Of a stretch of 64,000 bases of DNA, positions 6,519 through 50,604 are shown in pieces. Origin of the DNA: an uncultured Ignavibacteria bacterium. Lineage in GTDB: Bacteria; Zixibacteria; MSB-5A5; SM1-73. Both the position numbers and the translations under genes were made by a program. Position 1 is the stretch's first letter. Every line of letters begins with the position of its first letter. The notes beneath the pieces were generated by a model. It was not told where the DNA came from. It saw nothing but the letters and a program-made list of their open reading frames with translations, and did not search any database. The DNA lies in the NCBI GenBank assembly GCA_964588305.1, contig CAZPOP010000001.1, positions 56,736-120,735 of the forward strand, written 5' to 3'.

Positions 6519-9500
6519 ATGGCAGGAAAAATGAATCCGGGGCGGCAATCATGGCTGCGAGAGAAATTTGGCAGCCGGGTGAGCTTCAACCGGATCGAGC
6601 GCAAACTGTACGGTCACGACATCGCTGCCATGCCCAGTTTGTTCAAACCGATTATAGGGAACACAATACCGGAGGCGGTGGTTCAGCCGGAGACGGAGCA
6701 CGAGGTCGTCGAGCTGGTACGTTGGGCGGTCACAAACAACATTGCACTGACTCCCCGGGCCAAAGCATCATCCGGCTATGGTGGAGTGATCCCGGTCAAG
6801 CAGGGATTGGTTGTTGACTTTTACCGAATGAAAAAGATTCTGCGCGTCGATGCTGAGGCTCAGACTGCGACGGTTGAAGCGGGAGTGGTTTGGGAGGCCC
6901 TGGACAGGGAACTGGCCAAGCACGGCTTAACTTTGCGGCTCTATCCCAGCAGCTATCCGTCGTCCACTGCCGGCGGCTGGCTGGCTCAGGGCGGTGCCGG
7001 GTTCGGTTCTTACGAGGCTGGTTGGTACCGCGACAACGTGCTGAGCGTCAGGGTGGTGTTGCCCTCCGGGGAGGTGCGCGCGTTTGCCGGCGATGAGTTG
7101 GACCTCATCGCTGACGCGGAAGGCATAACGGGTCTTATCACCGAGGTCACCCTCAAGGTTCAGCCGCTTGAAGAACTTGATGTAGTGAGCATCGGCTGCC
7201 CCAATCCGCATGACCTGCAGCGTCTGATAGAGTCGATCCTCGGCTCGAATTTGCCTATCTGGTCGCTGGTCTTCATCAATCCCAGAATGGCTGAGCTCAA
7301 GAACCGGGCACCTTTGATGGAGCATTACGGGCACCCGGTCGAGGAGCGCGTGCTGCTGCCCGCCGCATACATCATAACTTTAGCTTACCGCAAAAAAGAC
7401 CGCGGATCAGTCACGGACAAGCTGCCAAAACTTCTGAAGCAGTGCGAGGCAGAAATCCTGAGCGAGCGCATAGCTGAGCATGAATGGAAGAACCGGTTCA
7501 AGCTCATGATCGTAAAGCGGCTTGGGCCTTCGTTGGTGCCGGCTGAAGTCGTTATCCCGCTTTCTAACTTGGGAAAGGTGATGACCGAGATCGAGGCCGA
7601 GATTAACCAGCCTTTGGTCAAAGAGGGTTTGGTTATCCGGCAGGGTGCGGGCGGTAAGCCGGAGGTCATCATCCTGGGTTTCATCCCCAGTGACGAGCGC
7701 AAGTTCAGCTACAACTTCGTCTTTGCTTTGGCATTGACTTTGATGAAGATCGCGGAGAAGCACGGTGGTCGACCATACGCAACGGGCATGTATTTCGGAA
7801 GTCAGGCTGACGTTATCTTGGGTAAAGAGAGAGTACAAAAGCTGCGCGCCTTCAAGTCGCAGATCGATCCCAAAGGTATCATGAATCCGGGCAAGGTTAT
7901 TGGCAGAGGGTTGGTTGGCACAACGCTGAGCTTGGCCCGCGCGTTCGAGCCGCTGGTTCGCCCCTTTGGCAATCATGTCATAGCCCAGGTGGGCGAGCGT
8001 CCGACTAAGCCCGTAAGAGGCATTCCGGCGGACGTGGCCTGGTACGCATATGGCTGTTCTCAGTGCGGCTACTGCATCGACGAGTGCGACCAGTTCTACG
8101 GCCGAGGCTGGGAAAGCCAGAGCCCCCGAGGAAAGTGGTACTGGCTTCGGGAGTACATGGAAGGTCGCGAGGAGTGGACCCAGTTCATGGTGGATACCTT
8201 CTTAGTCTGCACTACCTGTGAGTTGTGCAACCTGCGCTGCTCGGCAGTCTTGCCTATTGAGCCGTCGTGGATGAAGCTGCGGGGCAAGCTTATTCATGAA
8301 GACAAGAGAATGACTTTCCCGCCTTTTGAGATAATGGCAGCCGCTCTGCGGGCCGAGGGCGACATCTGGGCCGGTTATCGCAAAGACCGGTCGAATTGGT
8401 TTCCCCCGGACCTTTTGGCAAAGCATGGGCCGGGTCGGAGGTCTAAGAATGTCTACTTTGCTGGCTGCACGGCAAGCTACGTGGAAAAGGACATAGCCAT
8501 GGCCAGCGTACGCTTGCTGGACGAGGCGGGCGTGGATTTCACCTATGTGGGCGAAAAGGAAAACTGCTGCTCCACCCCCATGTTGGTGGCCGGAAAATGG
8601 GACGTATTCCTTGAGACCATGAACAAGAATCTACAGGCAGTCAAGGAGACCGGAGCGGACACGGTGATCTGCTCCTGTCCTGCCTGCGACATGATGTGGC
8701 GCCAGGTGTATCCGAGATGGGCCGAGAAGCTTGGCATTGAGTATGGGATTACCGCCAGGCACTACAGCGAGATCCTATCAGAGAAGATCAAGGCCGGCCA
8801 GTTCAAGTTCCCTCCCAACGACAAGCAACCAGTGACGGTTTCCTGGCATGACTCGTGCCACATAGGTCGGGTTTCTGGAGTGTATGAGCCCCCGCGAGAC
8901 CTGATCAAGGCTATCCCCAACGTGAACTTGGTCGAGATGAGTCACAACCGGGAGGATGCACACTGCTGCGGCTCGGTTCTAACTTTAATTAAGGAGCCGG
9001 CAGTGGCTTATGAGATTGGTCGGACCCGTCTGGAAGAGGCGATTGAAGCCGGGGCAGAAAAAGTTTTGGCCCTGTGCCCTTGCTGTGAATTTCAGTTCCG
9101 GGTGGCCGCAGAAAAGAAGAAAGTCCCGGTAGAGATCGTGGATTTAGCCCGTTTCGCCTCATCGGCACTGGGCTACGAATTCCCCGATCCGCATCCGGAA
9201 GTGGAAGCCCAGTGGGCAGTCTTCGATGCGATGATCGCCCTGATGACGCCGGAAGGCTTCGCTGAGCTGATGAAAACCATGTGGCCGGAGCTTATCAGAG
9301 CCATGCCCTTCAAGATGGGGACAATGATGCGCGTCATGGGGAAGATTCCCGGTGCGCCGAATTTGATGAAGCCGTTGTTCCCTATCCTCTTCCCCAGGCT
9401 CTTGCCAAAGATGATGCCAAAAGTCATGGCGGTGATGCTAAAACGAGTAGGTGAGCGCATCCCCATGCCCGACTACATGGCCGAACAGATGCCGGAGCTG

Positions 9501-9599
9501 ATGCCGAAAGTTATGGACAACCTCATGCCTCACATGATTGGTGATGTGGTTCCCTTAGTAACACAGCCGATGATCGATCACCTAAGAGGAAAGAATTAA
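6519..9599 (+). CDS. FAD-linked oxidase (GlcD-like) fused to 4Fe-4S and two CCG (GlcF/heterodisulfide-reductase-like) domains; YdiJ-like oxidoreductase
   Basis: The N-terminus is an FAD_binding_4/oxidase region. Central region has Cx2Cx2Cx3C clusters (CSQCGYCIDEC, CTTCELCNLRC). The C-terminus has two CCG-type Cys motifs (CCSTP...CPAC, CCGS...CPCC). Total length is 1026 aa. Confidence 0.8.
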   Translation: MAGKMNPGRQSWLREKFGSRVSFNRIERKLYGHDIAAMPSLFKPIIGNTIPEAVVQPETEHEVVELVRWAVTNNIALTPRAKASSGYGGVIPVKQGLVVDFYRMKKILRVDAEAQTATVEAGVVWEALDRELAKHGLTLRLYPSSYPSSTAGGWLAQGGAGFGSYEAGWYRDNVLSVRVVLPSGEVRAFAGDELDLIADAEGITGLITEVTLKVQPLEELDVVSIGCPNPHDLQRLIESILGSNLPIWSLVFINPRMAELKNRAPLMEHYGHPVEERVLLPAAYIITLAYRKKDRGSVTDKLPKLLKQCEAEILSERIAEHEWKNRFKLMIVKRLGPSLVPAEVVIPLSNLGKVMTEIEAEINQPLVKEGLVIRQGAGGKPEVIILGFIPSDERKFSYNFVFALALTLMKIAEKHGGRPYATGMYFGSQADVILGKERVQKLRAFKSQIDPKGIMNPGKVIGRGLVGTTLSLARAFEPLVRPFGNHVIAQVGERPTKPVRGIPADVAWYAYGCSQCGYCIDECDQFYGRGWESQSPRGKWYWLREYMEGREEWTQFMVDTFLVCTTCELCNLRCSAVLPIEPSWMKLRGKLIHEDKRMTFPPFEIMAAALRAEGDIWAGYRKDRSNWFPPDLLAKHGPGRRSKNVYFAGCTASYVEKDIAMASVRLLDEAGVDFTYVGEKENCCSTPMLVAGKWDVFLETMNKNLQAVKETGADTVICSCPACDMMWRQVYPRWAEKLGIEYGITARHYSEILSEKIKAGQFKFPPNDKQPVTVSWHDSCHIGRVSGVYEPPRDLIKAIPNVNLVEMSHNREDAHCCGSVLTLIKEPAVAYEIGRTRLEEAIEAGAEKVLALCPCCEFQFRVAAEKKKVPVEIVDLARFASSALGYEFPDPHPEVEAQWAVFDAMIALMTPEGFAELMKTMWPELIRAMPFKMGTMMRVMGKIPGAPNLMKPLFPILFPRLLPKMMPKVMAVMLKRVGERIPMPDYMAEQMPELMPKVMDNLMPHMIGDVVPLVTQPMIDHLRGKN

Positions 9600-9871
9600 A
9601 CGCGCCCGATATTTGGCGGGAGATTTCGGCCTTCCTCTCTGGCTGGGAACCACGACTGTAATCGCTTCCTCTCGGAACAAGTCTTCGCTTTAGATGGTTC
9701 AATGTTAGCGGTTGCCGAAGGTAAATGGCCTTGACACTTCTTTGTGGATTTTTCATGAGGAATGCCGTGGGCATGATTTCTCGAAAATGAGTCCTTGATG
9801 CCGATATATCAAATGAAGAATCTCTTTTCAGAAATCCCTGGGGAGATTTCTTAATCACCAAAGGTCAACAT

Positions 9872-10852
9872 ATGCTGAAAACGACAGTTGTGGGAAACTA
9901 TCCTAAGATAACGGCGGACAAATCTGCTCCCAATCTCAGATCGGCGCTCAACAAGTTCGATCGAAATAAGATTTCCGAGGAGGAACTGGAGAGGGTTTAT
10001 CAGGAAACTATCCAGAGAGTGATAAGAGAACAGGAAGAGGCAGGCGTGGACCTGATCACCGACGGACAGATCAGGTGGGATGATCCGGTTACTCCATTTG
10101 CCAGAAATATCGATGGACTGGAGGTTGGTGGTTTGATTCGTTTTTTTGACAACAATGTTTATTACCGAAGACCTGTGGTCAAATCCAAGCTGGCATTCAA
10201 GGACTATTCAACCGTGGAGGAATTTGCATTCTTAAAACGGAACTCAACTAAGGAAGTCAAAGCAGTCATTGTCGGCCCGTTCACCTTTGCCAACCTTGCA
10301 AAGGATGAATACTATAACGACATTGACAAACTCACTTTGGATCTGGCCGAAATCCTGAAAAAAGAGGCAAAGAAGTTAGAGGAAGCGGGTGCAGAATTTA
10401 TTCAGATCGATGAGCCTTCATTATGCTTTTCACCCGAGAAGATCGATCTGGCAAATCAAGCAATTAAGGTCATTACCGACGGTTTGAAGGCCAAGACCTT
10501 CTTGTACCTTTATTTCGGGGGGATCAAAAATCTGATTCCCGCACCTTTTGATTTCCCGGTCGACGGGATCGCAATCGACGTTGTCAGCAGACCTGAGAAT
10601 CTTGATCTTATATTGGAAGGTTCATTTGACAAGGAACTTGTCTTGGGCTGTTTGGATGCAAGGAACACAAGGTTGGAGGAAGAAGAGGAGCTTTTGAAGC
10701 TATTCCAGAGAACAACTCAGAAGATTTCCAGTGAGAGGATATACGTCAGTCCATCCTGCGGGCTGGAGTTTCTGCCTCATGAGGCGGCACTCGCGAAATT
10801 GAAAAGGATGGTGCAGTCGGCAAAGAAGTTCAATCTCGGCGGAGACGATTGA
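9872..10852 (+). CDS. MetE-like (UROD/MetE superfamily) protein lacking the zinc-ligand His-x-Cys; resembles MetE N-terminal (folate-binding) domain
   Basis: Clear similarity to cobalamin-independent methionine synthase domains (VGNYPK, DGQIRWDD, IQIDEP, SPSCGLEF). The position of the HxC zinc motif reads FLYLYFGG. Confidence 0.6.
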   Translation: MLKTTVVGNYPKITADKSAPNLRSALNKFDRNKISEEELERVYQETIQRVIREQEEAGVDLITDGQIRWDDPVTPFARNIDGLEVGGLIRFFDNNVYYRRPVVKSKLAFKDYSTVEEFAFLKRNSTKEVKAVIVGPFTFANLAKDEYYNDIDKLTLDLAEILKKEAKKLEEAGAEFIQIDEPSLCFSPEKIDLANQAIKVITDGLKAKTFLYLYFGGIKNLIPAPFDFPVDGIAIDVVSRPENLDLILEGSFDKELVLGCLDARNTRLEEEEELLKLFQRTTQKISSERIYVSPSCGLEFLPHEAALAKLKRMVQSAKKFNLGGDD

Positions 10853-10870
10853 CCAACTGAAGAGGTTGTG

Positions 10871-11836
10871 ATGTTGCTTACTACCACAGTGGGAAGCTTT
10901 CCCAAACCCGATTATCTGGTCAAAGCAAGGAATCTGTTCAGCCGGAAAAAGATCAGCGAAGATGAACTGAGGGAGCTGGAGAGGAAAGCTACGCGCGAGA
11001 TTATAAAACTCCAAGAGGGAATAGGCCTGGATATTCTGGTGCACGGCGAGATGGAACGCGCCGATATGGTGACCTTTTTTGCCGAGAGACTAGAGGGCTT
11101 CGGCATAAGTGGCCTGGTCCGTTCCTATGGCAACAGATACTACAAAAAACCAATTGCTAAAGGGAAGATCAAAAGAAATCATCCCATCGCCCTGGAGATG
11201 TTCCAATATGCGCAGAGCTTGACCCAAAAACCGGTAAAGGGAATGCTTACCGGTCCCTATACCATGTGCGACTGGTCCTTTAATGAATACTTTCCAACAC
11301 GGCGGGATTTGGTTTTGAATTTGGCAGAGGTGGTTCATCAGGAGGCTTTAGATCTGGATCACGCGGGAGCGAAATACATTCAGATAGACGAGCCAGCCAT
11401 CTCCACCCGTCCTTCGGAGATTGATCTGGCAATCGAGGCCATGAAGATCGTTACCGATGGTTTGAGGGCTAAGACCGTTTCTCACATCTGTTACGGAGAC
11501 TTCACCACCATCTATCCCAGGATTCTTAGTCTCGCGGTGGATCAACTGGATTTGGAGTTCGCCAATAACGACTTTGCCAATCTGGAGATTTTCAAGAATC
11601 CCCGCTTCACCAAAGAGATTGCCGTGGGCGTCATCGATGTGCATTCGCACGTGATTGAGACCAAGCAGAAGGTGAAAAGTAACATCAAAAGGGCGTTAGA
11701 GGTTTTTCCTCTGGAAAAGGTCTATATCGACCCGGATTGCGGCTTGAAGACCAGGACGCTGGAAGAGTCAGAGGCGAAGCTGAAGGTTATGGTGTCGGCT
11801 GTGAGGGAAGTTAAGGAAGAAATGGGGCTGAAATAA
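10871..11836 (+). CDS. Core cobalamin-independent methionine synthase (MetE C-terminal catalytic domain-like) with intact Zn ligands
   Basis: VGSFPKP, VHGEMERADMV, IQIDEPA and the SHICYGDF (H-x-C) and DPDCGLK Zn-ligand motifs. ATG at 10871, with an in-frame GTG at 10868. Confidence 0.7.
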   Translation: MLLTTTVGSFPKPDYLVKARNLFSRKKISEDELRELERKATREIIKLQEGIGLDILVHGEMERADMVTFFAERLEGFGISGLVRSYGNRYYKKPIAKGKIKRNHPIALEMFQYAQSLTQKPVKGMLTGPYTMCDWSFNEYFPTRRDLVLNLAEVVHQEALDLDHAGAKYIQIDEPAISTRPSEIDLAIEAMKIVTDGLRAKTVSHICYGDFTTIYPRILSLAVDQLDLEFANNDFANLEIFKNPRFTKEIAVGVIDVHSHVIETKQKVKSNIKRALEVFPLEKVYIDPDCGLKTRTLEESEAKLKVMVSAVREVKEEMGLK

Positions 11837-11837
11837 A

Positions 11838-13733
11838 ATGGCAGATCCATTTTTGGAAAGACTGAAAAAGGGAACCATGCTCTGCGACGGTGCCATGGGA
11901 ACTCTGCTTTACTCCCGAGGAACAGGATTCGAGCATCCCTTTGATGAGCTGAATCTGTCTAAGCCGGACATGGTTCAGAAAGTCCATCAGGATTATATCA
12001 AGGCCGGAGCAGAGATTATCGAGACCAACACGTTCGGAGGGAACAGATACAGGCTGGGCGCTCATGGGCTTCCGGGAAGAATCAGAGAGATCAACATCAG
12101 AGGAGCAGGTATTGCCCGGGAGGCACGAGAGATTGAGGGTGAACCTGTCTTTGTGGGCGGGTCGATCGGACCTCTGGGAAGACCGCTGGCTCCCATCGGA
12201 AAGATCACCTCAAAGCAGGCTTTTGAAGCGTTTCAGGAGCAGGCAGAAGCACTGGCTGAAGCCGGAGTGGATCTTTTCATAATCGAGACCTTTTCCGATT
12301 TGGTTGAAATCAAGGAAGCTATCAGAGCCGTAAGAGGAGCATCCAAGCTACCGATCATTGCCCAGATGACATTTACCGAGGAGGGTTTGACCTTGATGGG
12401 CCACACACCTTCCGGGATTGCCAAAGAGCTGGAAAAGATAGAGGTTGACGTCATTGGCGTCAATTGCAGCGTAGGCCCGCAAAGGGTTCTGGATGCAATT
12501 CACCAGATGAGAAAAGTCACCTCTTCCAAATTATCTGCTCAGCCCAATGCAGGATTCCCCAGGTTTGTGGACGGAAGATTCATATATCTTTCCTCGCCGG
12601 AGTATTTTGCAGAATATACCAAGAGATTTCTCAGCGCTGGGGTGGCGGTTTTGGGAGGTTGCTGCGGCACCACGCCTGAGCACATTCAAGCCATGGCCAA
12701 GGTGCTCAAAGAGAAAGAATCCGGCTCAAATGAAAATGCCGGAGTAATCGAAGTCGAAAGAGAGTTCGAGGAGCAAGTCACCGTAGAAGAGTTGATTGAA
12801 CCCTCGACTTTTGCTTCTAAACTGAAAGAGAAATTCGTGATCTCGGTGGAATTGGATCCTCCCCGCGGCGTGAATCCCAAAAAGGTTTTAAGGCAAGCTC
12901 AATTGATCAGGGACAGGGGCATCGATGCGGTGAACATAGCCGACAGCCCCATGGCCAGGGTCAGGATGGGCTGTCTTTCTTTGGCCGCTCTGGTCAAAGA
13001 GAAAGTAGGGCTGGAGGTTATTCTTCATCTGACCTGCCGGGACAGAAACCTTATGGGACTGCAGTCCGATCTGATGGGAGCGCACGCTTTGGGCATTCGG
13101 AGTATACTTGCCGTAACCGGCGATCCTCCCAGATTGGGAGATTACCCTCATGCCACGGCAGTCTATGACGTCGATTCCATAGGTTTGGTAAAGATAATCA
13201 AGAAGCTGAACCAGGGCACGGACTGGGCCGGCAACTCCATAGGCTCGCCCACCTCCTTTTGTACCGGGGTAGGCGCAAATCCGAATGCACTCGATTTTGA
13301 AAAGGAAATGGAGAGATTGAGGCAGAAAGTTGAAGCCGGTGCAGATTTCATCTTCACTCAACCTCTGTATGATAATGAAACCTTGAATGGTTTTTTGGAA
13401 AGAGCGCAAGGGTTGAATCTTCCTATTCTGGTGGGCCTGCTCCCCTTGCACAGCTTCAGACAGGCGGAGTTTTTGCATCATGAAGTCCCAGGCATTGCCA
13501 TCCCTCAGAACATACGAGACAGAATGAAAAGCGCGGGTGAAAGGGGAATAGAAGAAGGCATTACTATCGCCAGAGAATTCTTAGAAGAGATTAAACAGAG
13601 AATTTCCGGAGTTTATCTGGTTCCCTCCTTTGGAAAAGTCGAGTTGGCATTGGAAGTAGTAGAAGATATCTCCTTTTCAAAATACCTTTCCTCTCCACAA
13701 AGCGACGGGGGTAGAAACCCTTTCACAGCGTGA
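11838..13733 (+). CDS. Bifunctional homocysteine S-methyltransferase / methylenetetrahydrofolate reductase (YitJ-like fusion)
   Basis: The N-terminal half is an Hcy-binding S-methyltransferase domain (CDGAMGT, ETNTFGGN, GGCCGTTP). The C-terminal half is MetF-like (ILHLTCRDRN, AVTGDPP). Confidence 0.8.
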   Translation: MADPFLERLKKGTMLCDGAMGTLLYSRGTGFEHPFDELNLSKPDMVQKVHQDYIKAGAEIIETNTFGGNRYRLGAHGLPGRIREINIRGAGIAREAREIEGEPVFVGGSIGPLGRPLAPIGKITSKQAFEAFQEQAEALAEAGVDLFIIETFSDLVEIKEAIRAVRGASKLPIIAQMTFTEEGLTLMGHTPSGIAKELEKIEVDVIGVNCSVGPQRVLDAIHQMRKVTSSKLSAQPNAGFPRFVDGRFIYLSSPEYFAEYTKRFLSAGVAVLGGCCGTTPEHIQAMAKVLKEKESGSNENAGVIEVEREFEEQVTVEELIEPSTFASKLKEKFVISVELDPPRGVNPKKVLRQAQLIRDRGIDAVNIADSPMARVRMGCLSLAALVKEKVGLEVILHLTCRDRNLMGLQSDLMGAHALGIRSILAVTGDPPRLGDYPHATAVYDVDSIGLVKIIKKLNQGTDWAGNSIGSPTSFCTGVGANPNALDFEKEMERLRQKVEAGADFIFTQPLYDNETLNGFLERAQGLNLPILVGLLPLHSFRQAEFLHHEVPGIAIPQNIRDRMKSAGERGIEEGITIAREFLEEIKQRISGVYLVPSFGKVELALEVVEDISFSKYLSSPQSDGGRNPFTA

Positions 13734-14190
13734 GTAAGGCCAGCTCCGGTGGCGTTGGTGGGCTTGGTGACCTTGGTGATCTTCGTTTTGAAAATTTTCT
13801 TCCTCACTAATCATCTCCTCCTGTCTTTCCATATAGCTCCCTCTCAATAACAGGCGACCTATAGGTTTCACCACAAAAGTTGTGGGGAAAATGCTCGGCG
13901 TGGGTGAGTGTTCCCCAAGTCAGTGATGATTTTTCCCGGTTGACCAACCCAAGTCATATTGTCAGTGAAAAACACCGACAGGGAGTGGGGACAGGGGGTC
14001 TTTGTCCTGTAGTTGGACCCATTCAACGATTTATCTTGACTTTTGTTCGTCTCGCAATTATAGTTCTACGAAACTCGACGAGAGAGAGAAAGTGATTGAG
14101 ATAGAATAGGCTTTACGCGCTAGATAGAGACAAGAAACAGTTCCTTCACTATGGTTATTTAACATCGACAGGAGCCGTTGTACTGAAGCG

Positions 14191-15429
14191 ATGAGGACAG
14201 TAACAACAAATCAGGAAAAAAGTGCTAAGGTGTATTCAAGTCCTATGAGTCCACCCATTGTTTCAAGCGACGTAACGCCGGATACGCCGCTTGACAATAT
14301 GAACCTGAATTGGCGTGAGAAGGATTTACCTGAGAAAGAGCGGACAAAACACGTTCACAGGCTACATCCATACTTAGGTAAATTCATACCCCAACTGGTC
14401 GAAATCTTCCTCCGAAAATACTTCCTTCCTGGCCAAACGGTACTTGACCCATTTTGCGGATCGGGAACGACCTTGGTTCAAGCTAATGAGCTTGGGATCA
14501 ATGCGATAGGGTACGACATCTCTGCTTTTAACATACTAATTTGTCGTGCAAAGACGACCAAGTACAATGTCGAGAAGGCACGTGTTGAGGTGTTTGATAT
14601 ATTGAATAAGGTGCGTTCTTTGACCGGGACCAACAAGAATCAGGGAGACTTTTGGGACCAGAGTTTTGCTTCGCACCCGTTGTGTGAGTCAGCTAGTCGG
14701 TACCTAAGAAATTGGTTCGCACCGCAGGCCCTGCGTGAATTGCTAACGTATAGGCAACTGATCGATGAAGGGGACTATTCTTGCAGTGACTTACTTAAAG
14801 TTGTCCTATCTCGGTCTGCGAGGTCAGCTCGTATGACTACTCATTACAACCTTGATTTCCCTAAGGACCCGCAAAGGGAGCCATATTGGTGCCATAAGCA
14901 CGCGAGAACATGTCAACCCACAAAGGAAGCCTTCAAGTTTTTGAGGCGATATAGCATAGACACCATGAGAAGAATTGAGCAATACGCCGCGCTGCGGACG
15001 AACGCAAGAGTGATCGCTAGACACGTAGACAGCCGCCGTGAGAAATACCCAGCAATCGACGGGGTGATTACGAGTCCGCCATATGTCGGGTTGATTGACT
15101 ACCACGAGCAGCACATTTACGCTTATCACTTACTTGGACTTAATGAACGCCGTCATCACGAAATTGGGTCTGCGGCTAATGGGTCAAGCCAAAAGGCGAA
15201 GGAGGAGTATCAGCGAGACATTTGTGAGGTTTTTGCGCGGATTGTGAAATCGATGTCGAGAGGAGGCTATCTAATTGTTGTGGCGAACGATAAGGCAAAT
15301 CTGTATGGGAAGATAGCGGACATGGTGGGAGCGGAGGTGGAGGGGATTGTGGAACGTCACGTCAATCGCAGGACGGGTAGACGAGCGACTGATTTCTACG
15401 AGTCAGTTTTCATCTGGCGGAAAGGGTAA
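14191..15429 (+). CDS. DNA methyltransferase, N6_N4_Mtase family (motif IV SPPY suggests N4-cytosine)
   Basis: DPFCGSGTT AdoMet motif and TSPPY catalytic motif. Adjacent to a candidate endonuclease. Confidence 0.75.
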   Translation: MRTVTTNQEKSAKVYSSPMSPPIVSSDVTPDTPLDNMNLNWREKDLPEKERTKHVHRLHPYLGKFIPQLVEIFLRKYFLPGQTVLDPFCGSGTTLVQANELGINAIGYDISAFNILICRAKTTKYNVEKARVEVFDILNKVRSLTGTNKNQGDFWDQSFASHPLCESASRYLRNWFAPQALRELLTYRQLIDEGDYSCSDLLKVVLSRSARSARMTTHYNLDFPKDPQREPYWCHKHARTCQPTKEAFKFLRRYSIDTMRRIEQYAALRTNARVIARHVDSRREKYPAIDGVITSPPYVGLIDYHEQHIYAYHLLGLNERRHHEIGSAANGSSQKAKEEYQRDICEVFARIVKSMSRGGYLIVVANDKANLYGKIADMVGAEVEGIVERHVNRRTGRRATDFYESVFIWRKG

Positions 15430-15440
15430 CTCAAGAGAAT

Positions 15441-16280
15441 ATGCGGGCTATTAAGCGCAACACACGAGTTAAGATTAAAGCTTACCTTGAGGTTTTTGTT
15501 GAGAACCTTGTGAAGGAGTACAGGGGCCGCGTAATTCCACCGATTGGCTCAGCGAAGAAGTACTTGAGAAAGAAATCCTCGAAGGGACAGCTTAAACCTT
15601 TTCATGCTGCAATAATTCCGCATGGGTTGCTTCGCATCAATGAGTTTGAAAGAGGCTTCAGCACCGGCTTGGGGACAACATTTGAAGAATGTGCCCGTCT
15701 GATTGCACAAGACCATCATAGCGAAGCTCAACGAGGTTATAACCTCACGGCCACAGTGAGCAATGCAGCTGTAGAGGAGATTGACAGACAGGTAAGTGTT
15801 TTGGAGCACACAGTGGACATGAAAAACCGAAAGCCTTCCCTTCACGCGATGATTGAGGCTGTTATGGGCGCTCGAAGAGATGACGATTTGTCACAAAGGA
15901 CAAGCCGGGCGGATTTATATATCCTTGAGAAAGACGGTAACGAGCTGTTCTTTGAGATGAAATCTCCGATGCCAAACAAAGGACAGTGTCTGGAAGTTAC
16001 ACAACGAGTGCTGAGATTTCATTTGTTGCGGGGCTCCGGCCGCCCAGTGGTGAGTTCGTACTTTGCTATGGCTTATAATCCTTATGGGCCTAATCGGTCT
16101 GACTACAGGTGGTCATTTGCCTTGAACTACACGCCCTTTGATGAAATGATACTACTTGCTCAAGAATTCTGGGAGCTTGTAGGAGGCAGGACGGCCTATG
16201 AGGAATTGATAGAGATTTACCGCGAGGTAGGCCATGAAAAGGCAAAGTATATGGTTGATGCTTTGGCTTTCGGATTTTAG
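15441..16280 (+). CDS. Putative Type II restriction endonuclease (PD-(D/E)xK-like motif)
   Basis: The gene starts 9 nt downstream of the MTase stop. RADLYILEKDGNELFFEMKS fits a D...E.K nuclease core. No family was recognised by eye. Confidence 0.4.
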   Translation: MRAIKRNTRVKIKAYLEVFVENLVKEYRGRVIPPIGSAKKYLRKKSSKGQLKPFHAAIIPHGLLRINEFERGFSTGLGTTFEECARLIAQDHHSEAQRGYNLTATVSNAAVEEIDRQVSVLEHTVDMKNRKPSLHAMIEAVMGARRDDDLSQRTSRADLYILEKDGNELFFEMKSPMPNKGQCLEVTQRVLRFHLLRGSGRPVVSSYFAMAYNPYGPNRSDYRWSFALNYTPFDEMILLAQEFWELVGGRTAYEELIEIYREVGHEKAKYMVDALAFGF

Positions 16281-38596: not shown

Positions 38597-39952
38597 CTAA
38601 AGGGTTTCACTTTCTATCGCCTCTTCCACTTTTCTTTTCGCCTCTTCCAATAATTCTTTCGCTTTTCTTCTTGCTTCATGAGATTGACGGACGAGTAAGG
38701 CGATTTCTTTCTGGATCTTATCAGGCATTATGGGAATTGTAATTCTCTTGAGAGACGCCTTCGGAACGGCAGTCAAAATCGTGCCTGCACATTGTTTTTT
38801 GAGTTGCGCTTGGAGAACTATACTTTTTGATAAAACCAATAACACCTCGGGAAGGATTTTTATATACCTGAACTGGAAAAAACCAGTAGAGGCTAAGGCT
38901 CCTTCATACGCTTGACCGACCAAGGCTACTTTCTCTAAAGAACCTTCCACGCTTGAAACTATTATGTCATTCTTTCTTAAAACCCTCCTCGCTCTGCTTG
39001 GGGCCTCTTCACCTTTTATCTCACTTACGCTGTTTACGACTCCAATAGAAGGGTCTATGTCAGCCAATTCGACATAAGAAAAGGTTTTATGGGGGTGTCT
39101 CATGGGATCAAAATCAGGCTTGATACTCTTAACATAATTTAACAACCACGAATGACCATTTTGATAATCCAATATGCATTTTATCACTTCTTCGTAAGCA
39201 GGCTGGAAATACTCAGCATCTGCACGATGAACTGCAAATGTTTTGGAAAGATTAGCAGTATAAGAAAGTTCGTATTTTGCCTTAAAATTGGTTAATCCTA
39301 ATTCTTCTAAAAGCAGGTTTTCAGCTTGCGAAAATAAATTACGCGAATCTTCAAGCAATATAGTGGCCTGTTTAGTTGTTTTCCCTATCTGCTCAGCATT
39401 CTTTATTTCGGGGATTAATAACTCTTCGATTTTTTCGATAAACAGATTCAATTGAACATTACCAGTTGACTCTCTGAATGCCTGGAATCTCCCGTATTTT
39501 GAATTGAGAAATGTCGATACATAAAATGGATCAAACTTCTTATTCTTTAACCGCACAATTCCAACATGCCTATCTGCATTAATTGGTAACATGCACGCTG
39601 AAACAACAGCAGTGTTGCCAATGGTGCCTACTGATGAAATAATTATGTCTCCGACACTTAATGAAGTTCTAAGATTTCTTTGGTGTTGCTCAGCAGAGAT
39701 GCGAGTATTTGCCGATAAGTCAAAATCATTATCTTGAACTGATTGAGCAGAGATTATTCTTATTTTGCTATTAGGATCATAGTCAATGGATGAATGAATC
39801 CCATCCGTGATTAAGGCAAAGCGTTTTAATGGTTTACTACTGATTTTGAGAAGTCTCTTTTCTAATTTTAGATATAATGGCTGATAATATTCAGCATCCA
39901 ACCTTTTGGTTCCTTTAAGATCAGATATATTAGATACACTTACCACAGCCAT
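38597..39952 (-). CDS. Restriction-modification specificity (S) subunit with two target-recognition domains
   Basis: 451 aa. Two TRD halves separated and terminated by conserved coiled-coil spacers (HsdS/BcgIB-like). Immediately downstream of a methylase gene. Confidence 0.75.
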   Translation of the reverse strand: MAVVSVSNISDLKGTKRLDAEYYQPLYLKLEKRLLKISSKPLKRFALITDGIHSSIDYDPNSKIRIISAQSVQDNDFDLSANTRISAEQHQRNLRTSLSVGDIIISSVGTIGNTAVVSACMLPINADRHVGIVRLKNKKFDPFYVSTFLNSKYGRFQAFRESTGNVQLNLFIEKIEELLIPEIKNAEQIGKTTKQATILLEDSRNLFSQAENLLLEELGLTNFKAKYELSYTANLSKTFAVHRADAEYFQPAYEEVIKCILDYQNGHSWLLNYVKSIKPDFDPMRHPHKTFSYVELADIDPSIGVVNSVSEIKGEEAPSRARRVLRKNDIIVSSVEGSLEKVALVGQAYEGALASTGFFQFRYIKILPEVLLVLSKSIVLQAQLKKQCAGTILTAVPKASLKRITIPIMPDKIQKEIALLVRQSHEARRKAKELLEEAKRKVEEAIESETL

Positions 39953-39955
39953 ATC

Positions 39956-42358
39956 TTAACCGCGCCAAAAATCGAAACTTTGCTCTTTGGCAAATTTAAC
40001 AAAAGCTTCTGCTATCTCATCCAAATCATGGTTTATTTCTGGGTGTTCATCTTTTCCGAGTACAAGCTCACCATTTGGGCCTTTTTTATATCTATATTCG
40101 CCACTCTCGTCTTTGACTGGTTTCTGATTTACAGCAAAGAATATAGGATAATCCATCTCTTTTATAACTTTGCCGTCAAGCCAGAATTTCTTGAACTGCT
40201 CGGTTATCTTTTCTTCATTCAAAACTAGATAAATTTGCCCTCCCAATACTCGCGCTGAGACTTCACGGCGAAGTTTTTTAAGTTTAATGTTTAAGATTTT
40301 GATTTCTTTGTTCAACTCTCTTTTTCTGTGATGTTGTGTGGTGCTGTCTAATTGTTTCTGTTTTTCTTCTAATATTTCTTGTAGTTCTTGTATCTCGTCA
40401 ATTACGGCCTTAATCGGCTTTGTCGCTTTTGTTTCCTTTTCTTCAGACTGTTCACCTTCTTCCGTCTCCTCTTCCTCCAATTCTTCTACAGTCCCAAAAT
40501 AAGTTTCAATGAAAGATTTTAGTTCCTCGGTGAGACCCTCTTCATTTGTGGGTTTAGCCCAGTTCACCCCCTTGTATTTGTCTTTCAGGTTTGCAATAAA
40601 ACCTTCCCATTCTCCCTCATACTTCGCTTTAGTTTCCTGAATTGTTTGCTTTTCTTTGTCTGTGTATTTCTGTAAGAATAAGACGCTGGTTTTTGTTCCA
40701 GTATGGGGTTTAAAGGAATTTCCATGCAAACCAACCACTGCTAAAATTCGAGCTTGGTCGATAACAAACCTACGAATATATTCAGCATTTGTGTTATTTA
40801 ATATGCCTTGGGGCAGAACGATAGCGATTCTACCGCCCTGTCGTATAAATTGGAGGCAGCGATTTAGAAAGAGAATATGTCTCCCTATTTTTTTCACTAA
40901 TTTACCATTTTTCTCAGCTAACTCATACAACCTTAAGATATCCTTTTCCTTGACAGTTCCCGCGAAAGGCGGATTAGTCATGAGAACATCAAAATCGAAG
41001 TATAGGAACTTGTCTTGATTTTCTCTGTCCTTTTCCGGCTCACCAAATCTGAAAAGTCTGGATCTCAATCCCGCCTTAGTTTCATCGTTCCAAGTTTGCG
41101 GTGCTAACGAGTTATCTTTGTACACATGAGATTTACCGTCTCCCACTATCAGATTAATAGCTTTTGCTATTTTTACTGCCTTTTTAGCAAAATCAATCCC
41201 CACAATATTGTTTTGGGCAAAATTCTTAGCGGCTGGCGGAAGCTCCTTGCCGGTAATAGCACCGCCAGCAACCCGCATAACAGAATGCAAAAGGAAACCA
41301 GCTGAGCCACATGCAGGGTCTATCACAAATTCGTCTGGCTTGGGATTGAGCATCTCCACAACCATATCTTCAACCGGTCTCGGTGTGAAGAATTGCCCTT
41401 CCTTTTTCTTAGATACTTGTGGAATTAGGTATTCAAACGCCTCATCAATTATTCGAAGATTTGAATTGAACAACTTTATCTTTTCCAGAAAGGAGACACA
41501 AACCTTTAAGTGTTCATCTCTGAGTTCTATTTTGTCTGTAGGTTCAAACACTCCGCTCCATTGTCTTTTTGCTCCTTCGAGTAGATTGCTTATCTCTCTT
41601 TTTATTTTCGCAGCACTTCTGTCACCTACATAAAATCCTAATTGGTAATTTTTGTCGTTTATTCCCTTTGTTTCATCATATAGTTTTGCATATATTAACT
41701 TAAAAATCTCTTCGAAGGGATCCACGCCAGCATTGCCTAGAACAAGTTCCTCGAGATCCAGGAGTATTTTCTTGAGTGTTGTTTTGCCTTGTCGCAATTC
41801 ATCATATTCCTCTAACCAACCTATGGTCCATCTTTCTGTGAGAATATCTATAAGTGTTTCTGTGACTCTTGGAATCCGTGGGATTTCTACAAAAATATTT
41901 GGCTTCTCGCGATGGAGCCGTATTATCTCATTCCCGTTAGACCATACTCCTATGGGGGCTCCCTCTGCGTTACAATAACTCTTCAGTTGTTCTAAACCGT
42001 CTGTTCTTTTTGGTCTTTTTACTTCGAATATTATATATGGATGTGTTAAGTCGTCATGTAAAACGAGAATATCGGCCAGTCCAGAATCCCGAGACCCAAA
42101 ATAAACTACTCTTTCAACGTCAATTCGATTCAGTGGGTAATGGTATTCGTGGAAAAGTCTTTTAATCCAAAGTTGCCTGACAATCTCTTCTGGTTTTGCC
42201 GGTTTATATTTATTTTTTACTTGACACTTGATAGCAAATTTTCCGTCCCTCTTTATTATTAGTCCCTCTATTTCCTTTATCTCTCTTGTAGTAAAAAGAG
42301 ACAAACCATGCTTAACATCAGGGGTGGAGAAAATCGTTTGGATCTTTCCGTTCGGCAT
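39956..42358 (-). CDS. N6-adenine DNA methyltransferase (gamma-class, HsdM/BcgIA-like) fused to an N-terminal PD-(D/E)xK nuclease-like domain
   Basis: FxGxG-type motif DPACGSAGFL, then NPPFAG. The N-terminal ~170 aa contain ADILVLHDD...IIFEVKRPK (D...E.K). The C-terminus is an acidic coiled-coil. The locus has no helicase/HsdR gene. Confidence 0.7.
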   Translation of the reverse strand: MPNGKIQTIFSTPDVKHGLSLFTTREIKEIEGLIIKRDGKFAIKCQVKNKYKPAKPEEIVRQLWIKRLFHEYHYPLNRIDVERVVYFGSRDSGLADILVLHDDLTHPYIIFEVKRPKRTDGLEQLKSYCNAEGAPIGVWSNGNEIIRLHREKPNIFVEIPRIPRVTETLIDILTERWTIGWLEEYDELRQGKTTLKKILLDLEELVLGNAGVDPFEEIFKLIYAKLYDETKGINDKNYQLGFYVGDRSAAKIKREISNLLEGAKRQWSGVFEPTDKIELRDEHLKVCVSFLEKIKLFNSNLRIIDEAFEYLIPQVSKKKEGQFFTPRPVEDMVVEMLNPKPDEFVIDPACGSAGFLLHSVMRVAGGAITGKELPPAAKNFAQNNIVGIDFAKKAVKIAKAINLIVGDGKSHVYKDNSLAPQTWNDETKAGLRSRLFRFGEPEKDRENQDKFLYFDFDVLMTNPPFAGTVKEKDILRLYELAEKNGKLVKKIGRHILFLNRCLQFIRQGGRIAIVLPQGILNNTNAEYIRRFVIDQARILAVVGLHGNSFKPHTGTKTSVLFLQKYTDKEKQTIQETKAKYEGEWEGFIANLKDKYKGVNWAKPTNEEGLTEELKSFIETYFGTVEELEEEETEEGEQSEEKETKATKPIKAVIDEIQELQEILEEKQKQLDSTTQHHRKRELNKEIKILNIKLKKLRREVSARVLGGQIYLVLNEEKITEQFKKFWLDGKVIKEMDYPIFFAVNQKPVKDESGEYRYKKGPNGELVLGKDEHPEINHDLDEIAEAFVKFAKEQSFDFWRG

Positions 42359-48442: not shown

Positions 48443-50572
48443 CTATTTCAAAAGCAGCATTTTCTTCGTCTCCGAGACCACCGTTTCATTTCTTTCCACG
48501 GTAAGCTTATAGAAGTAGATGCCGCTTGCGACACGCTCTCCGGCGTTCCCCTTTCCATCCCACGTAATCGTATAAGCACTTGAGGGCTGGAATCCATGTA
48601 CAAGTGTCCTGATTTCCTGACCCAACAGGTTATATATCTTGAGCGTAACCTGGCTGCGCTTGCTTAGCGCGTACTCGATAGTCGTCTGAGGATTGAACGG
48701 ATTGGGAAAATTCTGCGCCAGATCGAAATCTTTGGGAGAGCCGACGAATTCGTCGTCATCCTCTTCTACCGACGTACAACCGCCGTTTGTGGTGTGCAGG
48801 ATTGTGCCATACTCGCCTACGGCCCAACCGGTGCTGGTATCCGTAAAACAGACGCTGTAAAGCCAATTCGAAGTTCCGGAGCTCTGCGCGTCCCAGTTGC
48901 TTCCACCATCAGTGGTGTGTATGATCGTGCCGGAGGCTCCTACCGCCCAACCCTTACCGACATCGATGAAACAGACGCTTTCGAGGTAGTTGAAAGTTCC
49001 AGAATCCTGAACGGCCCAGTTGCCTCCTCCATCGGCGGTGTGTAAGATTATACCGTCCCCACCCACTATCCACCCAGTGTCGGCATCGGTGAAGTAGACG
49101 CTATTGAGCCGCAGGGAAGTTCCAGAACTTTGAGGACTCCAGTTACCCCCAGCATTGATGGTGTGCAAGATTGTGCCGGAATCTCCTGAAACCCAGCCGA
49201 CATCGGCGTCTATGAAATACACGCAATAAAGCCACTGGGAAGTTCCGGAATTTTGGGCATCCCAACTGCTTCCCCCGTCGGTGGTCTGTAAGATTACGCC
49301 GGAATCTCCTACTGCCCAGCCAGTATCGCCGTCCGAGAAATATACACCGTAAAAATGATCTGAAGTTCCAGGAGTTTGAGCATCCCAGTGGCCACCTTGA
49401 TCGGTGGTGCGTAAGATCGTGCTGTCCAAACCTGCCGCCCAACCAGTGCTGTCGTCTGCAAAATGGATACTGAAAAGGTGACTAAAAGTTCCAGAGCTAT
49501 CGGCATGCCAGCTGCTGCCTTTATCGGTGGTGTGTAAGATCGTGCCAAAATCCCCTGCTGCCCAGCCAGCGCTGTCATCTGTGAAACAAACACTCCTCAG
49601 GTGATTTGGGGTCCCGGAAGTTTGACGATTCCAGTGGTCCCCTTCGTCTGCGGTCTTTAAGATGGTACCGCCGTATCCTACCGTCCAGCCCGTAGTGGCG
49701 TCCGCGAAATAGACGCCATTCAGACCACTTGACGCTCCGGAAGTCTGAGCATCCCAGTCGGCACCGCCGTTGGTGGTGTGCAAGATCGTACCGTACTCTC
49801 CTACTGCCCAGCCGGCATCGGCATCTACAAAATAGACGCCGAAAAGCGGCTGTAAAGTTTCGGAAGTCTGAGGACTCCAGTTGCCTCCGCTATTGGTGGT
49901 GTAAAGGATCGTGCCTGCCTCCCCTACTGCCCAGCCAGCACTGGCGTCCGCAAAATAGACGCCGTTAAGCCACTCCAGAATTCCAGAAGTCTGAGCATCC
50001 CAGTTGCTTCCCCCATTGGCGGTGTGTAGGATCGTCCCTGAATCTCCTACTGCCCAGCCGGTATCGGCATCCACAAAATAGACACCGTAAAACGATTGGT
50101 TAGTTTCCGATGTCTGAGGATTCCACTTGCTTCCACCGTTTGTGGTGTGCACGATTACGCCACTCTGTCCGACTGCCCAGCCGTTATCGGCATCCGTAAA
50201 ATAGACGCTCTTGAGGCGATTGGGAGTCTCGGAATCCTGAGGATCCCAATTGTCCCCACCGTCGGTGGTGTGCAGTATCGTGCCATGATCACCTACTATC
50301 CACCCGGTATCGGCATTCATGAAATGGACACCGAAAAGGTGACTTGACGTTCCGGAACTCTCAGGACTCCAGCTGCTTCCGCCGTCTGTGGTGTATAAGA
50401 TCGTCCCAACATCTCCTACCGCCCAGCCAGTATCGTCGTCTGTGAAAAAAACACTCCAAACGGTATTACCCTGAAGCAGAGGATTCTGCCAGTGCCAGCC
50501 TTGCTGGGCATAGCTCGTGGCTGCCACAAGCGTCAATCCCAAAATTATCAAGATTCTCTTGAACAAAACCAC
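48443..50572 (-). CDS. Secreted Ycf48/BNR-like repeat beta-propeller protein with T9SS C-terminal sorting domain
   Basis: Signal peptide. About 14 repeats of GTILHTTDGGxxWxxQxSGT...L..V.F.D...GWAVG. C-terminal FPNPFNPQTTIEY...LKIYNLLGQEI...GIYFYKL is the T9SS CTD. Confidence 0.75.
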   Translation of the reverse strand: MVLFKRILIILGLTLVAATSYAQQGWHWQNPLLQGNTVWSVFFTDDDTGWAVGDVGTILYTTDGGSSWSPESSGTSSHLFGVHFMNADTGWIVGDHGTILHTTDGGDNWDPQDSETPNRLKSVYFTDADNGWAVGQSGVIVHTTNGGSKWNPQTSETNQSFYGVYFVDADTGWAVGDSGTILHTANGGSNWDAQTSGILEWLNGVYFADASAGWAVGEAGTILYTTNSGGNWSPQTSETLQPLFGVYFVDADAGWAVGEYGTILHTTNGGADWDAQTSGASSGLNGVYFADATTGWTVGYGGTILKTADEGDHWNRQTSGTPNHLRSVCFTDDSAGWAAGDFGTILHTTDKGSSWHADSSGTFSHLFSIHFADDSTGWAAGLDSTILRTTDQGGHWDAQTPGTSDHFYGVYFSDGDTGWAVGDSGVILQTTDGGSSWDAQNSGTSQWLYCVYFIDADVGWVSGDSGTILHTINAGGNWSPQSSGTSLRLNSVYFTDADTGWIVGGDGIILHTADGGGNWAVQDSGTFNYLESVCFIDVGKGWAVGASGTIIHTTDGGSNWDAQSSGTSNWLYSVCFTDTSTGWAVGEYGTILHTTNGGCTSVEEDDDEFVGSPKDFDLAQNFPNPFNPQTTIEYALSKRSQVTLKIYNLLGQEIRTLVHGFQPSSAYTITWDGKGNAGERVASGIYFYKLTVERNETVVSETKKMLLLK
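49567..50572. repeat. About 1-kb near-identical direct repeat (copy 1) covering the N-terminal third of the first T9SS propeller gene
   Basis: Identical 83-aa antisense ORFs at 50096..50347 and 52504..52755 demonstrate at least 252 nt of perfect identity. Protein N-termini are near-identical for ~335 aa. Confidence 0.8.
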
Positions 50573-50604
50573 CTCCTGTCTGATTTCTTCCGTCTCACTT
50601 TTCC

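Follow-up and report, generated by a model that had tools for sequence, protein, structure and literature searches.

Does the bacterium behind this stretch of DNA build its cobalamin-independent methionine synthase (MetE) from two separately encoded halves? The question is raised by two adjacent MetE-like genes in 64,000 nucleotides (nt) of an uncultured, Zixibacteria-like bacterium (contig CAZPOP010000001.1), the whole of which is called the window below: open reading frame (ORF) 1 at 9872..10852, encoding 326 amino acids (aa), and ORF2 at 10871..11836, encoding 321 aa. All features of this locus lie on the + strand. We conclude that the two probably encode the subunits of a split MetE, with ORF1 as the putative folate-binding, non-catalytic subunit (Pfam, signature residues, tree) and ORF2 as the predicted catalytic subunit, binding zinc and homocysteine (Pfam, NCBIfam). 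Direct support comes from subunit homology, ligand patterns, the conserved order of the genes, the purifying selection on both, and a methylenetetrahydrofolate reductase (MTHFR) gene linked to them. Split MetE was defined by Price, Deutschbauer & Arkin (PLoS Genet 2021; PMC7857596) as an N-domain protein and a C-domain protein from adjacent genes; because it has thus been described since 2021, the pair in the window is an ordinary new example, by its sequence a further, bacterial (Zixibacteria-like) case of a known group. An earlier reading of the letters alone (the original prediction) had proposed a MetE encoded as an N-like and a catalytic gene 15 to 18 nt apart. The adjacent MetE-like pair is borne out by the ORF calls and by Pfam (E=4e-42 and 3e-84), and the division of labor is supported by diagnostic positions, trees (bootstraps 100/100), pairing in 73 of 78 genomes and purifying selection.

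The downstream protein and its zinc site

ORF2 matches the Pfam family Meth_synt_2 (PF01717) with 283 bits (E=3e-84). Its score of 435.5 on the NCBIfam equivalog NF003317 “methionine synthase” exceeds the cut-off of 406, while it stays under the cut-off of the other short methionine-synthase models, NF002119, NF002272, NF006589, and NF004875. ORF2 is 38.6% identical to the C-domain of E. coli MetE; its identity to the catalytic subunit of the Halobellus limi split MetE is 38.8%. In the alignment all four zinc ligands are retained, as had been predicted: H205-I-C207 (11483..11491) corresponds to E. coli H641 and C643, E229 (11555..11557) to E665, and C290 (11738..11740) to C726. The homocysteine-binding Ser/Glu/Asp are likewise present as S9, E60, and D173 (E. 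coli S433/E484/D599). A length of 321 aa (limit 400), the PF01717 match, H-x-C / E / C and Ser/Glu/Asp together are the features of a split-MetE catalytic component, which the published survey recognized by at least 200 bits against PF1269 (METE_PYRFU) in phmmer (PMC7857596). The motifs quoted at the outset were all found again: SHICYGDF, DPDCGLK, and VHGEMERADMV in ORF2, FLYLYFGG and DGQIRWDD in ORF1.

Across 37 sampled split-MetE catalytic subunits, the His, Cys, and Cys ligands are kept in all 37. The Glu position (E. coli E665) is Ala in six of them (loci L008–L087).

Assignment of the upstream protein

ORF1 matches both MetE families of Pfam, Meth_synt_2 (PF01717) with 145.1 bits (E=4e-42) and Meth_synt_1 (PF08267) with 114.6 bits (E=9e-33); on NF003317 it reaches 276.6, under the cut-off of 406. 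Its 326 aa (limit 400) and its PF08267 score (cut-off 27) are those of the second component of a split MetE. Scores of whole sequences and profiles against the two MetE halves are ambiguous: as a single sequence, ORF1 scores 88 bits against the C half of Candida MetE and 63 bits against the N half. The hidden Markov model (HMM) of the ORF2 family, by comparison, gives 294 bits for the E. coli C half and 18 bits for the N half. The assignment therefore rests on signature positions and bootstrapped trees.

For the signature positions we aligned ORF1 and ORF2 to both halves of E. coli MetE (K-12 record) and read 14 diagnostic positions: the zinc ligands (H641/C643/E665/C726) and the contacts to homocysteine (S433/E484/D599), both sets from PMC7857596, together with flanking signature residues. 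ORF1 reads NQFDNNLDYYDRNC and the E. coli N-domain -DFNTNLDTYDRNC, ORF2 reads SEYGNRWDHCEHSC and the E. coli C-domain SEYGSRWDHCEHSC. In ORF1 the segment FLYLYFGG (10499..10522) places Y212 and Y214 where the His-x-Cys ligands would sit, and D236 (10577..10579) occupies the Glu site, where the E. coli N-domain and 46/46 sampled N-like proteins also have Asp. The segment SPSCGLEF (10748..10771) retains C296, a relic of the fourth ligand that is also found in the E. coli N-domain and is variable (C, A, T or S) within the N-like family. The pattern is thus Y-x-Y / D / C, its equivalent in the E. coli N-domain T-Y-D-C, and the claim that ORF1 lacks the zinc ligands holds for His-x-Cys and for Glu but not for the last Cys. 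Two homocysteine-contact positions carry N9 and Q66.

A second signature is R90-FFDNNVYYRRP (10139..10174), whose counterpart in the E. coli N-domain is K117-WFNTNYHY; at this site ORF2 has RSYGNRYYKKP, of the C-domain type. The residues K117, K20, W561, and E605 of E. coli MetE (UniProt P25665) we take to be folate contacts. The K117 equivalent is Arg in 46/46 sampled N-like proteins, and the K20 equivalent is Arg in 29/46. ORF1 has the N-domain-specific motifs R/K-(W/F)-F-(D/N)-x-N-Y-(H/Y)-Y and (A/G)-R-N, and the residues FD[NT]N, x-Y-D, and RN are common to ORF1, the E. coli N-domain and the N-subunits of our haloarchaeal references (Halobellus and Haloarcula pairs from a plasmid collection).

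Neighbor-joining trees divide the sequences in the same way. With and without the haloarchaeal pairs, bootstraps of 100/100 separate an N side, with the stand-alone N-like proteins, the E. coli N-domain, the N half of a fused 699-aa homologue and the haloarchaeal N-subunits, from a C side composed of catalytic subunits and MetE C-domains. A better match of ORF1 to C-domains was the check that the original prediction had set for itself: the scores slightly favor the C half, whereas signature residues and trees place ORF1 on the N side. We believe that ORF1 is an N-type barrel much less diverged from the catalytic type than fused N-domains are, since it is 34% identical to ORF2 over the full length, against 18% between the N and C halves of E. 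coli MetE, and since the family HMM scores agree.

The AF2 model of ORF1 (pLDDT 86.7) is a MetE-type barrel whose top Foldseek matches are MetE structures (TM ≈ 0.88 over the query); this search does not discriminate between N and C barrel, because its output is silent on which barrel was matched. Ratios of nonsynonymous to synonymous substitution (dN/dS, Nei–Gojobori) are 0.08–0.13 for ORF1 and 0.06–0.07 for ORF2, so both genes are under purifying selection, and ORF1 is being maintained rather than decaying.

Family size and conserved pairing

An exhaustive HMMER search with ORF1 returned 286 clusters (50% identity level) at E<1e-30. Among the 137 full-length representatives from the best 150, 133 are stand-alone proteins of ~320 aa with the N-type pattern, and in a pattern scan (one genome per species) an ORF1 relative is encoded in 559/600 among the matches listed. 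The best 80 loci carry about ten bacterial labels, including Zixibacteria, “Ignavibacteria”, Eisenbacteria, Chloroflexi/Dehalococcoidia, Actinomycetota, Omnitrophota, Limnochordales, Bacillota, and Planctomycetales, as well as one Thermoplasmata and one “Nanoarchaeota” metagenome-assembled genome (MAG). Remoter members of the family are archaeal (Aig-, Micr-, Aenigm-, and Korarchaeota, Thermoproteota).

Flanking sequence was sufficient for a pairing count in 78 of these best 80 loci (species-level genomes). In 73 of the 78 the N-like gene is followed directly, on the same strand, by a catalytic-type gene, with gaps of −44 to +185 nt (18 nt in the window), and the same adjacency is found in the close relatives L003, L005, L088, L089, and L090. 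This suggests that split MetE, as recognized from sequence, occurs commonly among uncultured bacterial phyla, with Zixibacteria, Chloroflexota/Dehalococcoidia, Actinomycetota, and Omnitrophota among them. Public names do not reflect it. Among the ORF1 homologues P0010, P0014, P0015, P0036, P0042, and P0103, several from Zixibacteria are called “methylcobamide--CoM methyltransferase” at NCBI, and JGI gives the full MetE enzyme name; both are unfit, because the ORF1 type is a zinc-less N-domain-like subunit.

The Zixibacteria/“Ignavibacteria” MAGs L001/L002, L009, L012, and L013 form a subclade 63–66% identical to ORF1, in which the N-like gene lies 3′ of a GAF-response-regulator gene; in L001 the next gene encodes a secreted-looking protein of 385 aa that matches nothing in Pfam. 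In L028 (Ca. Thermofontivivens) the N-like gene lies between an acyl-CoA dehydrogenase gene and a zinc alcohol dehydrogenase (Zn-ADH) gene.

Two genes in one reading frame

The ORF1 stop TGA (10850..10852) is separated from ORF2 by 15 nt if a GTG at 10868 is used (322-aa form) and by 18 nt if the ATG at 10871 is used. Most likely the ATG is the true start, because a Shine–Dalgarno-like GAAGAGG (10859..10865) lies 5 nt upstream of it, homologues start with MLLTT, and public gene calls have the 321-aa form. The two ORFs had been placed in different frames, which is incorrect: their starts are 999 nt apart (10871−9872) and they share one frame. Translation across the junction reads ...NLGGDD, stop, PTEEVVMLLTTTVG... 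(...GGDD, stop, PTEEVVMLLTT...), with a single TGA and six sense codons between the ORFs.

This layout calls up the possibility of a single gene for a fused 650-aa MetE, in which the TGA would stem from faulty sequencing or from a recent nonsense mutation, or would be a site of programmed read-through. The shared frame and the single TGA fit it, as do the C that follows the stop, a relatively leaky context, and the existence of fused homologues such as the 699-aa P0228. We nonetheless hold it to be exceedingly improbable. In three independent metagenomic relatives, the closest ones (L088, L089, and L090; 82–91% identity), which have the same in-frame layout, the TGA, the 18-nt spacer, the Shine–Dalgarno sequence, and the ATG are all retained, and in all three the base after the stop is G, with differences in nearby codons too. 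In the wider family the relative frame varies, being 0, 1, and 2 in 10, 14, and 49 of the 73 paired genomes, and some pairs overlap. A read-through product would have a connecting peptide of just six residues, whereas in the alignment the E. coli N half runs ~30 residues beyond the end of ORF1 and the C half begins ~45 residues before the start of ORF2; independent public gene calls also give proteins of 326 and 321 aa. Because stop, spacer, Shine–Dalgarno sequence, and ATG are kept in relatives and the frames vary across the family, a frameshift or nonsense artefact, the other check set by the original prediction, is excluded, and read-through fusion is no feature of the ORF1/ORF2 family.

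The adjoining reductase gene and the methyl donor

A third gene (11838..13733; 631 aa) starts 1 nt after the ORF2 stop and encodes a YitJ-like fusion of homocysteine S-methyltransferase and MTHFR (Pfam S-methyl_trans and MTHFR), which passes NCBIfam NF006396 with 770 bits against a cut-off of 453. With 18 nt and 1 nt between them, the three genes probably form one transcription unit. Within 4 kb up- or downstream of the pair, the same fusion gene occurs in 13 of the 78 other genomes, both archaeal MAGs included; it is also near the pair in L005 and probably in L089. Halobellus limi has a gene for methylene-tetrahydromethanopterin reductase two genes upstream of its split pair. A recurrent neighbor of the pair is thus a reductase that makes a methylated one-carbon (C1) carrier, and in the window the adjoining MTHFR fusion points to 5-methyltetrahydrofolate (5-methyl-THF) as the methyl donor. 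A scan of 34 window ORFs gave no B12-binding, CoFeSP-type or DUF1852 (MesX) domain.

These neighbors bear on the alternative already raised in the original prediction, that ORF2 is a folate-independent “core” methionine synthase with a corrinoid methyl donor and ORF1 a degenerate paralogue with no or a minor role in methionine synthesis. ORF2 has the size of a core enzyme and lacks the segment around E605 found in fused MetE, and ORF1 is nearer to catalytic barrels than fused N-domains are (34% against 18%). We consider this reading improbable, since purifying selection on ORF1 is strong, its large conserved family has N-domain signature residues at the diagnostic positions and falls on the N side of the trees, the pairing is kept in 73/78 genomes, and the recurrent neighbor is an MTHFR gene and not a corrinoid-protein gene (none among the window ORFs scanned). 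ORF2, moreover, passes NF003317 and fails the other short methionine-synthase models.

Proposed enzyme and points against it

In the split MetE that we favor, ORF2 would form the catalytic (beta-alpha)8 barrel, translated from its own ribosome-binding site, which would hold zinc via H205, C207, E229, and C290 and activate homocysteine. ORF1 would be the zinc-less, stand-alone counterpart of the MetE N-terminal barrel; in analogy to the face-to-face double barrel of fused MetE, it would pack against ORF2, seal the active-site cleft, and take part in binding methyl-THF(Glu)n. 5-Methyl-THF, the presumed methyl donor, would come from the MTHFR domain of the third gene. The physical heterodimer, the use of methyl-THF, and the exact role of ORF1 are what we infer here.

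A further-reaching version, possible but rather unlikely in our view, would make ORF2 a core-type enzyme whose donor is set by a detachable subunit, with methyl-corrinoids used by ORF2 alone and methyl-THF in the presence of ORF1. The bacterial split system would then be a surviving intermediate on the way from core MetE to fused MetE. The idea arises because ORF1 is 34% identical to its partner, is less diverged than fused N-domains and, in family scores, is about equally related to both MetE halves.

Several observations weigh against the split MetE reading. Of the two Pfam models, the one for the catalytic domain gives ORF1 the better score (145 bits, against 115 bits for the N-domain model), and the ORF1-family HMM gives 153 bits for the E. 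coli C-domain and 126 bits for the N-domain. By the same Pfam scores (114.6 vs. 145.1 bits), ORF1 fails the screening rule of Price et al. that PF08267 exceed PF01717. The position equivalent to E605 is Thr in 35/37 sampled catalytic subunits, and the surrounding 8-residue loop (REGLPLRR) is missing. The N-like gene stands without an adjoining catalytic gene in L001/L002, L009, L012, L013, and L028. Further methionine synthases or corrinoid proteins could be encoded elsewhere in the genome, the scan having covered 34 window ORFs. Finally, in the literature we found no later biochemical work on split MetE, which as of 2026 is still called “previously proposed”.

On the screening rule, its authors state that it loses true partners, for example AMET1_0515 (PMC7857596); it is a search heuristic and not a biological definition. 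As for the E605 position, the equivalent of W561 is Trp in 37/37 catalytic subunits, ORF2 included; because the presumed folate contacts are thus only partly retained, the pterin site of the split-MetE family may differ in detail from that of E. coli MetE.

The unpaired N-like genes, which stand in other contexts, are also what one would expect if ORF1 acted independently, as an enzyme (for example another methyltransferase) or a binding protein, and were only loosely linked to ORF2. Many residues are invariant across the ORF1 family, and there is a weak similarity to the URO-D/MtaA family. That match, at 18.6 bits, is under the Pfam cut-off of 23.9, and ORF1 lacks the His-x-Cys zinc motif used by such thiol methyltransferases. 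Adjacency to the catalytic subunit is the rule (73/78), and occasionally unlinked components of split MetE are already known, as in Pyrolobus fumarii (PMC7857596). An independent function is, on this evidence, very improbable.

The leader and the rest of the window

Upstream of ORF1 lies a leader or promoter region (9735..9871) that is kept in the closest relatives only, with a palindrome, TTGATGCCGATATATCAA, at 9795–9812 and, at 9823–9856, a small hairpin that runs into a T-rich tail. About 110 nt upstream of ORF1 are highly conserved in the window, L088, and L089, despite a different upstream gene in L089, while the leader is not conserved in L090 (82% identity). To judge from its sequence, it may be the promoter or operator of the met operon. 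A riboswitch for S-adenosylmethionine (SAM) or B12 upstream of ORF1 was rejected: Rfam had no match at gathering thresholds in the whole window and only noise at E≤10 in 9500–9950, and the folding energy of the leader is ordinary (z = −0.62). A promoter/terminator scan of 9400–14,300 gave counts no better than shuffled sequence.

Directly upstream of the met operon, at 6519–9599 (+), is a gene for a 1026-aa FAD-linked oxidase (FAD_binding_4 / FAD-oxidase_C) with a 4Fe-4S dicluster and two CCG (HdrD-like) domains; its C-terminal tail of ~100 residues is rich in Met and Pro (...MPKVMAVMLKRV...MPELMPKVMDNLMPHM...). The gene has this position in the window and in L090 and is absent in L089 and more distant relatives, for which reason a functional tie to the met operon was rejected. 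Directly downstream of the operon, at 14,191–16,280 (+), is a type II restriction-modification pair, composed of an N6_N4_Mtase methylase and a TdeIII-family endonuclease. A second restriction-modification system, at 38,597–42,358 (−), consists of a fused HSDR_N/N6_Mtase/Eco57I-type enzyme and an adjoining specificity (Methylase_S) gene, and is inserted between the genes for an ABC-transporter ATPase and an MlaE permease. At 48,443–52,971 (−) are two tandem paralogues (709 and 788 aa) with BNR/YCF48-like repeats, FlgD-Ig, and a Por secretion (type IX secretion system, T9SS) C-terminal sorting domain. The rest of the window is that of an ordinary diderm bacterial chromosome (BamA, OmpH, LpxD, DnaB, Fmt/Def, RNase E/G).

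Significance

The basic picture of split MetE drawn in 2021 is unchanged by our results, and the additions are of modest value: a wide spread in uncultured bacteria, an MTHFR fusion gene as a recurrent neighbor, and an unusually close similarity of the N-like subunit to its catalytic partner. A mesophilic bacterial pair with MTHFR in the same operon would be a convenient system for testing the predicted split MetE and its methyl donor. Because the separate barrel can be omitted, such a pair could show directly what the N-terminal barrel of MetE contributes. The misnaming of N-like subunits affects the metabolic reconstruction of B12 independence in uncultured bacterial lineages.

Comparison with known systems

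With canonical fused MetE, known from E. coli and from structures of the T. maritima, Arabidopsis, and Candida enzymes, the pair shares both barrel types in N-to-C order. ORF2 keeps the zinc ligands, S433/E484/D599, and W561, and ORF1 keeps the N-domain signature residues including the K117 equivalent (Arg). In contrast to the fused enzyme, the window encodes two polypeptides without an inter-domain linker, the halves are 34% identical compared with 18% in E. coli, so that the N-like half is far less degenerate, and ORF2 is without the 8-residue loop that contains E605. On TIGR01371, the model of canonical MetE as a single polypeptide of ~750 aa, ORF1 scores 135 and ORF2 315 against a cut-off of 930. 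Two polypeptides and scores this far under the cut-off mean that the pair is not a canonical MetE.

The core synthases (MesA of methanogens, MesB/core-MetE of Dehalococcoides, MesC, and MesD with MesX) have, like ORF2, a C-domain-like barrel of ~320–340 aa with a zinc site. They differ in that they have no N-domain-like partner, use corrinoid proteins or MesX and O2, and go together with corrinoid proteins, the Wood–Ljungdahl pathway or MesX, whereas the window has a conserved N-like partner next door and a linked MTHFR. Since there is a dedicated partner and no corrinoid context in the 34 window ORFs scanned, the pair does not fall among MesA to MesD. The third gene resembles Bacillus subtilis YitJ in passing NF006396; it is an accessory gene and not part of the split enzyme, and a YitJ-type gene beside split MetE is recurrent but not universal (13/78).

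The closest counterpart is archaeal split MetE. In the survey by Price et al., split MetE turned up “primarily in archaea”; most Halobacteria and Thermoprotei have no other methionine synthase, and Sulfobacillus sp. hq2 is the one bacterium named (PMC7857596). They cite co-fractionation evidence for a complex of PF1268 and PF1269 in Pyrococcus furiosus, and predict methyl-THF or another methyl-pterin as the donor (PMC7857596). As in the window, two genes of ~320–360 aa are found in archaea, the N-domain-like gene directly 5′ of the catalytic one; the haloarchaeal loci have this gene order with a 4-nt overlap. Their catalytic subunits have H-x-C/E/C, and the ligand positions of the N-subunits read H-Y-D-T in Halobellus and N-Y-D-T in Haloarcula. 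In the tree, too, each haloarchaeal subunit sits on the side of its counterpart in the window (100/100), and the signature YDNN / x-Y-D / QN is shared. Unlike the archaeal systems, the window comes from a diderm, Zixibacteria-like bacterium; ORF1 is 26–30% identical to the haloarchaeal N-subunits and 31–33% to their catalytic subunits; and the C1 neighbor is a folate-type MTHFR fusion, not a methanopterin-type reductase.

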